Both the position numbers and the translations under genes were made by a program. Below are positions 197 to 4,021 of a DNA stretch of 4,214 nt, piece by piece (position 1 is the stretch's first letter; each line of letters opens with the position of its first letter). Source of the DNA: Naegleria gruberi (Eukaryota); the NCBI GenBank assembly GCA_000004985.1, contig GG739190.1. The stretch is one strand, 5' to 3'. Under the pieces are notes generated by a model. The model did not search any database and was not told the origin of the DNA. It saw only the letters and a program-made list of their open reading frames with translations.

Positions 197-204
197 TAAT
201 CTAG
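197..204. repeat. Left copy of putative 8-bp target-site duplication, TAATCTAG
   Basis: Identical 8-mer in direct orientation immediately outside both TIRs (197..204 and 4014..4021). The identity does not extend to a 9th base on either side. Confidence 0.7.
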
Positions 205-218
205 CGGGGGGAGACAAC
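205..218 (+). repeat. Left terminal inverted repeat, CGGGGGGAGACAAC
   Basis: Exact reverse complement of 4000..4013 (GTTGTCTCCCCCCG), 14/14 matches. Similarity stops at the inner edge: 219/3999 and 220/3998 mismatch. Confidence 0.8.
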
Positions 219-285
219 CTGACTTCAACTACCACTAGGGAGGGTCATTTCCCGCCTTTCCTTTTTTGTCATATGATCAACAACT

Positions 286-292
286 AAATATT
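286..292 (+). promoter_or_regulatory. TATA-like element TAAATAT about 165 bp upstream of the ATG, inside the transposon 5' region
   Basis: Sequence only. Position is compatible with an internal element promoter. There is no transcript evidence. Confidence 0.15.
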
Positions 293-440
293 CAAATAAA
301 AACATCAGATTACCAACAACCAACAACAAAACACACCAAACCATGATCCTCTCCGCAGTTACTGAACATCTAACTCATGTTCGATTCATATTTTGGTTGT
401 TCGAGTATTTGTTGGAACTGAATCAACGTTAAAAACAATT

Positions 441-456
441 CAATCAATAAAAAAAA
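441..456 (+). promoter_or_regulatory. A-rich translation-initiation context (CAATCAATAAAAAAAAA-ATGG), yeast/eukaryote-like Kozak leader
   Basis: A run of 9 A precedes the ATG and a G follows at +4. There is no Shine-Dalgarno-like purine-rich GGAGG upstream. Confidence 0.3.
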
Positions 457-3400
457 ATGGGTCGATCATCATTCAAAGTTGAAATAAATAAAAATTGTTT
501 GGGGATTACTGATTATGATAAATTCGATATATTATTGGATGTTGAAAAGAACAAAGTAATGGATGGAAGTGGGAAAATAGCTGGCACTATTGTAAATAAA
601 TGTTTACGTTCTATTGACTGCACAAAAATTCACAACAAAAACAGAAAATCTGACTCGTGCGTGAAGTGTTGTGATTTGAAAAGCAAGCTAGATACAAATC
701 TCCAAAAAGTTCATAAAATTCTAGAAAATCCAAATACTCTTCCTCCTTATTCATCCATAATACCATATCCTCAAGTCATGTATCAACTATTACGTGAAAC
801 TACGAAAGCTTTGGGAAAGTGTGAGCCCAGTAACTTTGAAACAAAAATAATAGAATCATTAAGGAAGGCCAAAGCACAATATGAGATTAATTCAAGTCTT
901 AAATCAAAACATATTAAAATGAACAAAGATCCAACAATTGAAAATAAGCAATGTGAGCAAGAATTACTAGAAAATGAGCAAGAATTAATTGAAAATGAGC
1001 AAGAATTCATTGAAAAAGATACTGATCAATCCAAACAATCCAAAAAAACTGATAGATACACACACATTCCACCTCAAAAACAAAATCCATTATCATCCAA
1101 AGGTTTTGGAAAATTCGAGGAATGTTTTTTTGTAAAATTTCTTCATAACCAATTAGAAAATTTCACTCTACCCCCAAATGCTCACAGATATGATGAAGTA
1201 ATGAAACGGTATTGGTTTCTTGGGAGGTATTTTAGTGGAAAGCAATTTTTCAATCAACTATCCGGTAAAAAGAATCAACAAATTCCTTGTAATTGGAGAA
1301 CAAATCTGCAATACAACATAGTGATGCCAAGTAACAACACCATGAAAAACTGGTTACCAAAAGGAAGCATTGGAATATGTACATATTCTGATTCAGTATT
1401 CAATAGTTTAGAACCTAATTCGTGTAAAGAAGTATGTGTTTCAATGGATGGAATGAAGGTTCTGAAAAAATTGGAAAGAATGAACGGTCAAGTAATTGGA
1501 ACATCTCAAAAAATTAATGTGAAAACACCACCATCCAACCATAATATCAACCTTAGTGAAGTTACTGAAGAAATGGTACTTTTTAATGTTAATGCAATAG
1601 ATAACAGTTGGCATTGTCCTTTAGGATGGTTTGCTATATCTTCTGCTGACAAAATTAATGACTTCATTTACGAAAAAATGATATTATGTAATGAAAAATT
1701 AAAAGGTTACTCTCTAAAAATGGTGTGTGGATGTGCAGATGGTGAGGCAGATGCTAAAAATTTGCAGAAACTTTTACGAGAGAAAATTGATCCAAATTTC
1801 ATATTTGTGACTGATTATGTACATAATTTCAAGAATCAAAGAAATTGTTTGTTCAATGGGACAATTTTGAAAAACATTAATATGTCAACACTTATTAAGT
1901 TGATGAATAATTATCCACATCTATATGAAATGCTGGATAAAGAAGAAGTCTCACCCTCAGATATTATGGCTATTAATCCATGTCTTGAACTGACCTCTCC
2001 AAAAGTAGTAGAAGTGTTAAAATCACTCAGAAATAATGATGCTGCCATTTTGGCTAAATATTTAGAAACTATTCGAGAAGTGTATGATGTCATTAATGAT
2101 AATGATGTTGACATTGTTGATAAATTAGAATTATGTAAAGAATATTTTTCAAATATTCCTGCCAAGCAATATCCTGAAAAAACTAGAAACATTTGTCTTC
2201 ATACTATTGAAGGATTTCAATATCTTGCAAATACCTATTCAAATTTTAGACCAAGTTGTATAACAACTAATTATAATGAGCTAATGTTTTCCATTATTAG
2301 AAAGAGGTATCCACGAGCCACAGCAAAGCAATTCTGTTCATCAATATTAATTGCCTTCTATATTTTCCTATTAACATCTTGCTCAGAAGAGGTGAGAGGA
2401 TTTTCTCTTCCTGAAACGGAATGGACTGAGCATTATAGAGGAATGAAACTTAAAATTAAGTCTCTCCCAAATCTGAAAAATATTGATCCGAATTTTGTAG
2501 AATTAACTAAAGATGAAATTAATGCATTAGATAAATGGTTGACTAAGGTAAATCATAATATTGAAGGATATGTACGTAAAAGTACTCTCAGAATGGAATC
2601 ATGTGCCCCTAAAAAATTATTCCTTTGCTGCCCAATTAATGGATGTGATCGTCAAAAACCTTATATTGTGAAAGGCCAATTCAAGAATCATCTATTATCC
2701 AAGCACTCTGATAAAATAACTAGTGAACAACAAGCTATATCTGTAGTTAGAGAATTAGAGTGCAAACATTTTGAATTACAGTTTTTAGCTGATTCTGAAG
2801 TACGAAAGAACAGTGTTAACCTTAATAAGCAAGAAAGAGAAAAAATATGTGAAGAATCTTCTATATCCAATAAGTCACAAGACACAATGAGTACTCTTAC
2901 ACAACTGTCAATAAGGGACTCCAGTACGTGTGATGGTTCGACACGTACAACCATTCAACAACCAACCAATCAAATAATTACTCCTCAACTTAATAATAGT
3001 AATGGTATTGAAAAATATTTGGTTTCAAAGTATTTGAATGAAACTAAAATTCACATAGATATTAGCAATGATGATATTGTAGAGAGCGTAATATCTGTGA
3101 AAAATAATGAAAATTATCATGTTGTTGTCTTAGATTTAGAAACTACTGGGCTAATGCCAAATGACCATGAAATAGTGCAAGTGGGAATGATTTCATTAAT
3201 TTCCAAATGTGCATTTTCAATATATATTAAACCAAAATACCATGATTGGAGTAGTCATGCTAAAAAATTACATGTTGACAAAATGAATGAAATCAATAAT
3301 GGAAAACAATTAGACCAAATTATCATTCCAATCCACAATTATTTAACAAAGAACAATAGTTGTACTGCTGTTGTATTGGTACATTCAACATCATTGGACA

Positions 3401-3864
3401 GAAATTTCCTCATGAAAGCATTGACAAAACATGGCTTACCTATTGATAGGTACATGATAGTGAATACTATAAGCGAAGAATTCTTCCCTAAGCAGAAACT
3501 TGAAACACTGTTCAACCAAGTGAACAAGCCAATGAATACAACAACAAAAGATATAATAGGTGTTGCACATGATGCAGCCTTTGATACGGCCATGTTGTTT
3601 GATATAATCAAACACAAATTTGGAGATAATATTGATGGTGTTTTAGAAGCATGTATGTGCTTTCATGGTCGTCTGTGTGGTGATAAAAAGAGGAAGAAAC
3701 CTAATCATGATATTAACACAAAGAGAAAGAAGAAGAAGACAGAACCCAATACAAGTTCCGATCATTTTTTTAAACAATCACAAATAATAGAATTTATTCC
3801 CTGGACACCAGATACCAACAAAAATACAACCCGACAAAGGAAAACGAGAAGAAACAAAAAGTGA
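457..3864 (+). CDS. Transposase-like multidomain protein (1135 aa) with zinc-finger modules and a C-terminal DnaQ/epsilon-like DEDDh 3'-5' exonuclease domain
   Basis: Uninterrupted 3,408-nt ORF. An in-frame TAA at 448..450 lies just upstream of the first ATG, which sits in the A-rich context AAAAAAAAATGG. The ORF ends with TGA at 3862..3864. It lies entirely between the TIRs. Recognisable exonuclease motifs and zinc-finger spacing are present (see domain features). Confidence 0.85.
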   Translation: MGRSSFKVEINKNCLGITDYDKFDILLDVEKNKVMDGSGKIAGTIVNKCLRSIDCTKIHNKNRKSDSCVKCCDLKSKLDTNLQKVHKILENPNTLPPYSSIIPYPQVMYQLLRETTKALGKCEPSNFETKIIESLRKAKAQYEINSSLKSKHIKMNKDPTIENKQCEQELLENEQELIENEQEFIEKDTDQSKQSKKTDRYTHIPPQKQNPLSSKGFGKFEECFFVKFLHNQLENFTLPPNAHRYDEVMKRYWFLGRYFSGKQFFNQLSGKKNQQIPCNWRTNLQYNIVMPSNNTMKNWLPKGSIGICTYSDSVFNSLEPNSCKEVCVSMDGMKVLKKLERMNGQVIGTSQKINVKTPPSNHNINLSEVTEEMVLFNVNAIDNSWHCPLGWFAISSADKINDFIYEKMILCNEKLKGYSLKMVCGCADGEADAKNLQKLLREKIDPNFIFVTDYVHNFKNQRNCLFNGTILKNINMSTLIKLMNNYPHLYEMLDKEEVSPSDIMAINPCLELTSPKVVEVLKSLRNNDAAILAKYLETIREVYDVINDNDVDIVDKLELCKEYFSNIPAKQYPEKTRNICLHTIEGFQYLANTYSNFRPSCITTNYNELMFSIIRKRYPRATAKQFCSSILIAFYIFLLTSCSEEVRGFSLPETEWTEHYRGMKLKIKSLPNLKNIDPNFVELTKDEINALDKWLTKVNHNIEGYVRKSTLRMESCAPKKLFLCCPINGCDRQKPYIVKGQFKNHLLSKHSDKITSEQQAISVVRELECKHFELQFLADSEVRKNSVNLNKQEREKICEESSISNKSQDTMSTLTQLSIRDSSTCDGSTRTTIQQPTNQIITPQLNNSNGIEKYLVSKYLNETKIHIDISNDDIVESVISVKNNENYHVVVLDLETTGLMPNDHEIVQVGMISLISKCAFSIYIKPKYHDWSSHAKKLHVDKMNEINNGKQLDQIIIPIHNYLTKNNSCTAVVLVHSTSLDRNFLMKALTKHGLPIDRYMIVNTISEEFFPKQKLETLFNQVNKPMNTTTKDIIGVAHDAAFDTAMLFDIIKHKFGDNIDGVLEACMCFHGRLCGDKKRKKPNHDINTKRKKKKTEPNTSSDHFFKQSQIIEFIPWTPDTNKNTTRQRKTRRNKK
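601..672 (+). other. N-terminal Cys/His cluster (C49-x5-C55-x3-H59-x8-C68-x2-C71-C72); possible zinc-binding or DNA-binding module
   Basis: Spacing read directly from the translation CLRSIDCTKIHNKNRKSDSCVKCC. It does not match the THAP or BED consensus exactly. Confidence 0.3.
955..1017 (+). repeat. 3 x 21-bp in-frame tandem repeat encoding acidic heptads EQELLEN / EQELIEN / EQEFIEK
   Basis: The units are 955..975 GAGCAAGAATTACTAGAAAAT, 976..996 GAGCAAGAATTAATTGAAAAT and 997..1017 GAGCAAGAATTCATTGAAAAA. A partial fourth unit lies upstream at about 934..954. Confidence 0.7.
1414..1956 (+). other. Candidate RNase H-like (DDE-type) transposase catalytic region containing a [C/D]xxH motif (D453-Y-V-H456, nt 1813..1824)
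   Basis: Candidate first-D contexts are VCVSMD331GMK (nt 1447..1449) and NAID382NSW (nt 1600..1602). The candidate second D is CAD428GEAD432 (nt 1738..1752). About 25 aa downstream lies KIDPNFIFVTDYVHNFKN, which resembles the [C/D]xxH block of hAT/Mutator/P transposases; Mutator-like elements (MULEs) have FPN...CxxHxxxN here. The third acidic residue is not identifiable by eye. Confidence 0.35.
2626..2706 (+). other. C2H2-like zinc finger (C724/C725-x4-C730-x14-H745-x4-H750)
   Basis: Translation is LCCPINGCDRQKPYIVKGQFKNHLLSKH. This is Cys2-His2 spacing with a slightly long 14-residue spacer, where the canonical spacer is 12. Confidence 0.5.
2857..3006 (+). other. S/T/N/Q-rich low-complexity linker (aa about 801..850), likely disordered
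   Basis: Translation is SSISNKSQDTMSTLTQLSIRDSSTCDGSTRTTIQQPTNQIITPQLNNSNG. It separates the zinc finger from the exonuclease domain. Confidence 0.5.
3109..3636 (+). other. DnaQ/epsilon-like DEDDh 3'-5' exonuclease domain (aa about 885..1060); catalytic residues D893, E895, D981, H1038, D1043
   Basis: Motif I is HVVVLD893LE895TTGLMP (nt 3133..3141). Motif II is VVLVH976STSLD981RNFL (nt 3382..3399). Motif III is GVAH1038DAAFD1043TAMLF (nt 3568..3585). Spacing is I to II 88 aa and II to III 62 aa, matching E. coli DnaQ (about 91 and 64). The segment FSIYIKPKYH also resembles DnaQ FHVYLKPDRL. Confidence 0.8.
3685..3861 (+). other. Basic C-terminal tail with bipartite NLS-like clusters (KKRKK-x7-KRKKKK and RQRKTRRNKK)
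   Basis: Translation is DKKRKKPNHDINTKRKKKKTEP ... TRQRKTRRNKK. Two K/R clusters lie at nt 3685..3741 and a terminal basic decamer at 3832..3861. Confidence 0.45.
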
Positions 3865-3999
3865 TTTTCTATGTAATATACTTGTTGTTTTACTAGGGTG
3901 GTACATTCTGTTTCATGTATTGTGGTGTTGTTCACTATGAAGCAAATATTTTTTAGTCCCGATTAGGAAGGTTTCTCAGAGTACCCTCTGTTAGCACGA

Positions 4000-4013
4000 G
4001 TTGTCTCCCCCCG
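4000..4013 (+). repeat. Right terminal inverted repeat, GTTGTCTCCCCCCG
   Basis: Exact reverse complement of 205..218. Confidence 0.8.
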
Positions 4014-4021
4014 TAATCTAG
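4014..4021. repeat. Right copy of putative 8-bp target-site duplication, TAATCTAG
   Basis: See left copy; 8/8 identical and in direct orientation. Confidence 0.7.

Follow-up and report, generated by a model that had tools for sequence, protein, structure and literature searches.

We found that a 4,214-nucleotide (nt) stretch of Naegleria gruberi DNA (contig GG739190.1, assembly GCA_000004985.1; the whole stretch is hereafter called the window) very probably carries an intact, autonomous DNA transposon whose DDE transposase belongs to the P superfamily, that is, of the type found in the P element and THAP9. The segment at issue, nt 1414 to 1956, had been described in a sequence-only reading as a putative catalytic core that could belong to the P, hAT, or Mutator-like superfamilies. 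With high confidence, we assign it to the N-terminal half of the RNase H-like domain of the P-type transposase. The element spans nt 205 to 4013 (3,809 bp) of a window that is AT-rich (32% GC) and that has one long uninterrupted open reading frame (ORF); the sequences flanking the element are noncoding.

The segment is in frame with the 1,135-amino-acid ORF and codes for residues 320 to 500. Within it, CGCADGEAD occupies residues 424 to 432, which places D428 at nt 1738 to 1740, and FVTDYVHNFKNQRN occupies residues 450 to 463, which places D453 through H456 at nt 1813 to 1824, 25 residues downstream of D428. In-frame translation therefore bore out the residue numbers originally given for CAD428GEAD432, D453, and H456. 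The segment also includes a predicted first catalytic aspartate, D331 (VSMDGMKV, nt 1447 to 1449), and the predicted third catalytic residue, E608 (nt 2278 to 2280), falls outside of it.

These residues are shared by distant relatives. Using residues 201 to 848 as the query, we searched 1.84 billion representative proteins exhaustively with HMMER and obtained 51 relatives at a cutoff of E ≤ 1e-3. The nearest were proteins from Naegleria lovaniensis (37 to 47% identity), and the others included fragments from Naegleria fowleri, a transcript from the amoebozoan Soliformovum, and unannotated proteins from metagenomes and read archives. A word-indexed homolog search by profile contributed three further proteins only, and exact look-up of the window protein returned no matching record. 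We scored conservation among the non-gap sequences of an alignment of 35 sequences that are 17 to 48% identical to the window protein. D428, H456, R462, N463, and E608 were each conserved in 33 of 33 sequences, D453 and K459 in 32 of 33, and D331 in 28 of 29. Because D428, D453, H456, K459, R462, and N463 are retained in 32 or 33 of 33 relatives across this range of identity, the D453xxH456 block and D428 are evidently not chance resemblances. The proposed acidic cluster fared less evenly, since D428 is conserved throughout the family, but D432 varies even among the four closest homologs.

The superfamily assignment is carried by a family profile consisting of the window core and 21 distant relatives. 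When this profile was run against the sequences of solved structures in the PDB, the sole transposase that it matched was that of the Drosophila P element (6p5a_A, E = 2.3e-9). The resulting alignment paired LAFD230EMKV of the P element with VSMD331GMKV of the window, and IVSD303LG with SSDG in the family and CAD428GE in the window. It likewise paired SD339TPH342LIKLVRN with fDyvHllKnlRN in the family and TD453YVH456NFKNQRN in the window, and QDIVE531HFFGSMR with TNvvEnfFSivR and NYNE608LMFSIIR, respectively. In the P element, E531 sits in QDIVEHFFGSMR; its counterpart E608 sits in NYNELMFSIIR. The P-element triad has been established as D230, D303, and E531 (PMC7776569), and D(2)H is a signature of the P superfamily in which mutation of D339 impairs P excision (PMC8230255), while the broader C/DxxH motif is common to several superfamilies (PMC9587614). 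The interpretation of D453xxH456 as a [C/D]xxH motif was thus upheld by its retention in relatives and its alignment to the P-element D(2)H block. The match to the P element required the deeper family profile. A phmmer search of PDB sequences with the 1,135-residue protein gave only a weak match to the PolC exonuclease and noise, and a profile of four sequences recovered exonucleases only.

Taken with the structural placement described below, the alignment predicts a catalytic triad of D331 on beta1, D428 after beta4, and E608 on alpha4. The triad had been left unresolved in the sequence-only reading, which looked for a glutamate at the +34 spacing of Mutator-like element (MULE) transposases. 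That spacing was the wrong expectation, as E608 lies 180 residues after D428 and aligns with E531. The FPN...CxxH...N block that follows the second aspartate does resemble MULE cores, but neither the short spacing between the second aspartate and the glutamate nor a MULE transposase domain was found, and we consider a MULE transposase to be extremely improbable.

Searches with domain models were consistent with the P assignment. Pfam returned two matches for the window protein, a near-threshold match to TNP-like_RNaseH_N (PF21787) and an above-threshold match to the RNase_T exonuclease family (PF00929). Among the 35 family members, PF21787 matched 18 at E < 0.01 (best E, 1e-13), and it exceeded its cutoff in relatives P0017, P0026, P0027, P0029, P0032, P0035, and P0041. 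There were no matches to hAT, MULE, or other transposase families in the Pfam scan of the window protein and its relatives. We also compared the family using hhalign with P0053, a canonical P-like protein that contains PF21787, PF21788 (GBD, the insertion domain that binds GTP), and PF21789. The alignment (98.9% probability, E = 1.9e-17, 396 columns) was continuous over all three P-type domains, with dpPHLLKNIRNN opposite the D453-to-N463 block and ENLFSIIRGK opposite the E608 motif.

An RNase H-like fold in this region had been set as a test of the catalytic-core claim, and the split form of that fold was present in an AlphaFold2 model of residues 201 to 848 (22-sequence alignment; mean predicted local distance difference test score, 75; predicted template modeling [TM] score, 0.72). 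In model numbering, strands were predicted at 125 to 134, 140 to 147, 172 to 180, 186 to 194, 221 to 227, and 249 to 252, and helices at 197 to 216, 233 to 243, 254 to 267, and 405 to 417, with a run of helices at 276 to 393. The order is beta1-beta2-beta3-alpha1-beta4-alpha-beta5, followed by a helical insertion and then by the helix bearing the glutamate. D331 (model residue 131) is placed in the first strand, D428 (228) right after beta4, D453 (253) after beta5, and E608 (408) in the helix at 405 to 417, past the helical insertion. This split arrangement is the one described for P and THAP9 (PMC8230255). Most of the segment falls within the N-terminal half of the domain (nt 1429 to 1857), and its description as a DDE catalytic core was well founded, given the conserved D331 and D428. 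In a Foldseek comparison, the top match was 6p5a (E = 1.7e-12, TM score of 0.67), making the P element transposase the closest solved structure by fold, and the next was Hermes (E of about 1e-3, TM score of 0.27).

The distant match to Hermes bears on the hAT superfamily, which also has target-site duplications (TSDs) of 8 bp, a C/DxxH motif, and an RNase H fold interrupted by an insertion domain. However, the window protein has neither the hAT C-terminal dimerization domain nor a Hermes-like core, and a hAT transposase is therefore very unlikely. The earlier suggestion that an aspartate in the motif together with an 8-bp TSD favors a P-like or hAT-like affiliation was right about P; profiles and fold both contradict it for hAT. 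Because the RNase H fold is present and no confident match to an unrelated nuclease or recombinase family emerged, the ambiguity among P, hAT, and Mutator is resolved in favor of P. The confident transposase matches were to P, with Mutator and hAT far behind.

The boundaries of the element identify it as a transposon. Perfect 14-nt terminal inverted repeats (TIRs) are directly abutted on both sides by TAATCTAG, confirming that the 8-bp TSD, of a length (7 to 8 bp) expected for the P superfamily, is real; from base composition, the chance expectation for such a configuration in the window is about 7e-6. The left TIR is G-rich with a 5' C, like the terminus CAGGGAGGGTGAGCC of a related element in N. 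lovaniensis. This relative is 3,411 bp long, has TIRs of about 140 nt that start with CAGGGAGGGTGAGCC, and is present in at least seven copies, including identical 3,411-bp copies. Six of them have perfect 8-bp TSDs, all different (ATATTCTC, GAGAACTC, TCTGTGTT, ATTCTTGT, CAGAAGAA, and ATTGTTTA), and the seven TSD sequences from the window and N. lovaniensis have no obvious motif in common. The termini of the two elements follow the pattern 5'-CG/CA...CG/TG-3'. At the protein level, a cluster at 90% identity in N. lovaniensis contains nine different sequences, located on many contigs. The sister element has recently been mobile in multiple copies.

We weighed these observations against the possibility that the ORF is a THAP9-like gene that the host has domesticated and that no longer moves. 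Its homologs are publicly annotated as "hypothetical protein" or "Exonuclease domain-containing protein," those of N. lovaniensis are placed among ordinary genes, and neither a second copy nor an empty site of the window element was detected in the search for relatives in metagenome contigs or by an exact search for the TIR. Yet the ORF is bracketed by a perfect TIR and an 8-bp TSD, the sister element occurs as identical copies with a different TSD at each site, and all that remains in N. fowleri is decayed fragments, as is typical where transposons turn over. We thus give little credence to a host gene. The N. fowleri fragments range from 162 to 626 residues (P0004, P0006, P0012, and P0078) and are annotated as hypothetical or exonuclease-domain proteins; the family appears to have decayed in this pathogen and to have been recently active in its nonpathogenic relative N. 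lovaniensis.

Other features of the ends were observed among the relatives. At one N. lovaniensis locus (L001, 4882 to 5030 and 8155 to 8292), the TIRs of about 140 nt extend over the start codon of the ORF and at least its first nine codons, so that the ORF start is repeated in inverse orientation at the right end of the element. Among the seven full-length copies, L008 (PYSW02000079.1) has flanks that differ, ACAAAGTG versus GTTACACG; copies may have recombined, the site may have been rearranged, or the assembly may have joined separate sequences there. The right end of an element on an ENA metagenome contig (L002, k141_91059, 3340 to 3380) reads ...GATCTCCACCCCCG and resembles the right terminus of the window, ...GTTGTCTCCCCCCG, which suggests from sequence comparison that a G-rich terminal motif is conserved across the clade. 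The same contig has a subterminal inverted repeat of about 70 nt, and no clean left terminus or TSD was definable on this short contig. The copy at another locus, L003, has decayed and lacks TIRs. In the window, AGGGAGGGT at nt 237 to 245, which lies roughly 30 nt in from the left end, is similar to CAGGGAGGGTGAGCC at the N. lovaniensis terminus. It could serve to bind the transposase, but 40 of 200 shuffles produced one or more matches of this kind, which leaves it little weight.

The same termini separate the window element from Kolobok, and specifically from the KolobokD type, which encodes a DEDDh (DnaQ) exonuclease and belongs to a superfamily that has been reported from Naegleria (PMC9587614). 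Kolobok elements have 4-bp TTAA TSDs and 5'-RR...YY-3' termini (PMC9587614), in contrast to the seven insertions examined here. Kolobok is excluded because the TSDs are 8 bp long and are not TTAA, and because the termini are 5'-C(A/G)...(C/T)G-3' rather than RR/YY. Both of these features agree with P. Moreover, nearly all Kolobok transposases (except Kolobok1) have a zinc finger that lies after the C/DxxH motif and before the glutamate, and no alignment column between residues 457 and 607 has cysteine plus histidine at 50% or more. The exonuclease of the window protein is nearest to PolC and DnaQ-epsilon, whereas those reported for KolobokD are TREX/ERI1/exuperantia-like, and the top matches by sequence and fold are to P and not to Kolobok. 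A KolobokD-type element is accordingly most improbable.

Between beta5 and the helix bearing E608, the protein has an all-helical insertion domain of about 120 residues, which is a homolog of the P-element GBD and splits the fold as in P. The GTP-contacting residues of the P element are K385, K400, V401, S409, F443, D444, N447, and D528. In the 6P5A alignment, Y543, D544, N547, and S514 of the window protein correspond to F443, D444, N447, and S409, and the first three of these are invariant in four Naegleria-clade proteins. The window and N. lovaniensis elements both end in a 3'-terminal G, the GTP-contacting nucleotide in the P-element complex.

Several results weigh against the P assignment. 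The PF21787 match (residues 321 to 433) scored 22.9 to 23.8 bits, just below the gathering cutoff of 24.6, and Pfam gave no direct match of PF21788 or PF21789 to the window protein. Nor did Pfam detect a THAP domain, the C2CH module of the P superfamily. Some GTP-contact positions are not conserved: those of K385 and K400 are M492 and A505 in the window, that of D528 is N605, and in the wider family D544 is retained in 11 of 33 sequences and N547 in 8 of 33. Because these equivalents are only partly kept, the GTP dependence of the window transposase is uncertain. That D331, D428, and E608 converge in space is deduced from alignment and secondary-structure placement, and Kolobok was set apart by published criteria (PMC9587614), not by reference sequences. 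Lastly, the window element was found as a single copy. Despite these points, we favor a P-superfamily transposon, whose features are listed in Table 1.

Table 1. Features of the P-superfamily transposon in the N. gruberi window (positions in nt of the window)
Feature	Position	Strand	Details
Left TSD	197-204	.	TAATCTAG; identical 8-mer at 4014-4021; abuts TIR
Left TIR (element start)	205-218	+	CGGGGGGAGACAAC; perfect 14-nt inverted repeat with 4000-4013
ORF	457-3864	+	1,135 aa; one protein in which transposase, zinc finger, and exonuclease are fused
Putative zinc-binding DNA-recognition module	496-669	+	C-x40-C-x12-C-x2-C; aa 14-71; occupies the THAP position of P elements
N-terminal half of RNase H-like domain	1429-1857	+	aa 325-467, beta1 to helix after beta5; AlphaFold2, PF21787, 6P5A alignment
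D331, predicted first catalytic Asp, beta1	1447-1449	+	VSMDGMKV; aligns with P-element D230; model strand 125-134
D428, predicted second catalytic Asp, just after beta4	1738-1740	+	CGCADGE; aligns with P-element D303; follows model strand 221-227
P-superfamily D(2)H block	1813-1845	+	D453-Y-V-H456-N-F-K459-N-Q-R462-N463; beta5/insertion-domain boundary; aligns with SD339TPH342LIKLVRN
All-alpha insertion domain	1882-2235	+	aa 476-593, between beta5 and E-bearing helix
E608, predicted third catalytic residue	2278-2280	+	TTNYNELMFSIIRKR helix, aa 605-617; aligns with P-element E531; model helix 405-417
C2H2/BED-like zinc finger	2629-2706	+	C725-x4-C730-x14-H745-x4-H750; aa 725-750, CPINGC...HLLSKH; between transposase and exonuclease
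DEDDh (DnaQ/RNase T-type) 3'-5' exonuclease	3124-3597	+	aa 890-1047; predicted catalytic D893, E895, D981, H1038, D1043
Right TIR (element end, 3'-terminal G)	4000-4013	-	GTTGTCTCCCCCCG; perfect 14-nt inverted repeat with 205-218
Right TSD	4014-4021	.	TAATCTAG; identical 8-mer at 197-204

The domains outside of the transposase core recur in the family. The four cysteines of the N-terminal module (here, the CCCC module) are invariant in nine diverse relatives, and the pattern is present in 10 lineages; the module gave no fold match in the PDB. For the zinc finger, conservation among non-gap sequences was 27 of 27 for C725, 23 of 23 for C730, 22 of 24 for H745, and 24 of 25 for H750, and the zf-BED Pfam match of relative P0016 falls on these columns. 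The exonuclease scored 24.7 bits against PF00929 (cutoff, 24). Its active site is apparently intact, and the five predicted catalytic residues (ExoI D-x-E, ExoII D, and ExoIII H-x4-D) are invariant in four close homologs. Since RNase_T matches were obtained for 13 of 35 relatives, and truncated contigs account for many of the rest, the fusion of transposase and exonuclease is a feature of the lineage and not an accident of the window copy. With the family profile, the best exonuclease matches were the PolC exonuclease domain (2p1j, E = 2e-26) and Escherichia coli DnaQ epsilon (E of about 4e-16), with TREX and ERI1 behind. Because the domain is nearest to bacterial PolC and DnaQ-epsilon and not to the TREX/ERI1 type seen in KolobokD, the comparison suggests that the two exonucleases were captured independently.

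Set beside the P element (PDB 6P5A and 6PE2) and human THAP9, the window element has the same RNase H-like core, with an aspartate on beta1, an aspartate after beta4, and a glutamate on alpha4. The likeness extends to D(2)H-x2-K-x2-RN after beta5, an all-helical insertion that splits the fold, 8-bp TSDs, and short TIRs with a 3'-terminal G, and P is the best match by both profile and fold. In contrast, the window protein has an unrelated CCCC module and no THAP, a C2H2/BED-like finger and DEDDh exonuclease fused downstream, and GTP-contact residues that are only partly conserved. In addition, the first catalytic motif is DG in the Naegleria clade and not DE, and identity to 6P5A is only about 14 to 15%.

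Comparable combinations have been described elsewhere. An association of P-superfamily transposons with a DEDDh nuclease is mentioned in one sentence of PMC3627910; that sentence comes without sequences, hosts, domain order, or termini, and the lineage meant may or may not be the Naegleria type. The meeting summary cited there adds no detail on the association. In the open-access literature (with Repbase outside this scope), we found neither a fuller account of a P-DEDDh fusion nor any description of the CCCC head. KolobokD (Kojima et al. 2022, PMC9587614) is likewise a C/DxxH DDE transposon with a DEDDh exonuclease proposed to process 3' ends. It differs in having TTAA TSDs, RR/YY termini, a zinc finger located after C/DxxH and ahead of the glutamate, a TREX/ERI1-like exonuclease, and animal hosts, compared to the 8-bp TSD and PolC/DnaQ-like exonuclease of the window. 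Dada (Kojima and Jurka 2013, PMC3706591) combines a DxxH DDE transposase and a DnaQ-like 3'-5' exonuclease in one polypeptide. However, its exonuclease is of the DEDDy type and lies between the second aspartate and DxxH, and its insertions target small-RNA genes with short TSDs, whereas the window exonuclease is DEDDh and C-terminal and the TSDs share no obvious motif.

The window element is therefore a divergent and poorly documented exonuclease-fused lineage inside the P superfamily, in which an association with DEDDh nucleases was already known (PMC3627910). Of the earlier suggestion that it could be a divergent or new lineage, the divergence stands, within P, and a new superfamily does not. 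The flagged motif itself is an ordinary P signature; the unusual part is the accessory architecture.

A more speculative proposal, which we hold to be less likely than not, is that the window element and about 50 relatives from protists and metagenomes, most of them unannotated, could represent a deep lineage of P that has yet to be formally described. It would be characterized by a CCCC module that replaces THAP, a split RNase H core, a C2H2/BED finger, and a PolC/DnaQ-like DEDDh exonuclease that is integral to transposition, trimming the long 3' overhangs typical of staggered P-type cuts, and is not a passenger. Apart from that proposal, under the mechanism that we envision, the G-rich ends would be recognized by the N-terminal CCCC module, by the helix-rich region upstream of beta1, or by both. 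The transposase would then pair the ends of the element and excise them through its DDE site, by cut-and-paste as in P, and the 3'-OH ends, which terminate in G like those of P, would be joined to target DNA 8 bp apart. Catalytic activity and cut-and-paste transposition of the window element itself are likewise predictions from its sequence. After P-type excision, the 3' ends carry single-stranded extensions of 17 nt, and P insertions have an 8-bp TSD (PMC7776569). Because of these extensions, we speculate that the fused 3'-5' exonuclease might shorten single-stranded 3' DNA, either in the flanks of the donor site or as gaps are repaired. The exonucleases of KolobokD (PMC9587614) and Dada (PMC3706591) have been suggested to act in a similar way.

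If the deep-lineage proposal is true, the Naegleria elements, which are intact and recently mobile, would provide a tractable handle on second-strand cleavage and end processing in P-type transposition. In particular, an exonuclease that acts on transposition intermediates would bear on how the long 3' overhangs of P-type elements are processed. The combination of a P transposase with an apparently intact 3'-5' exonuclease and a non-THAP head has barely been documented. For the window, a flag of "ambiguous or new superfamily" gives way to a firm P classification with a predicted D331/D428/E608 triad, TIRs, a TSD, and a domain map. Naming the Naegleria homologs as intact, recently mobile P-type transposons would also improve genome annotation, including that of relatives of the pathogen N. 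fowleri, in which fragments alone persist.

Two further features of the window protein lie outside of the domains described above. At nt 954 to 1019, three tandem 21-nt units encode the acidic heptads EQELLEN, EQELIEN, and EQEFIEK, within an insertion that is not present in the N. lovaniensis and metagenome homologs. The C-terminal tail is rich in lysine and arginine at nt 3685 to 3744 (KKRKKPNHDINTKRKKKK) and nt 3832 to 3861 (RQRKTRRNKK) and resembles a nuclear localization signal; it is missing from three close homologs, whose ends come soon after the exonuclease.

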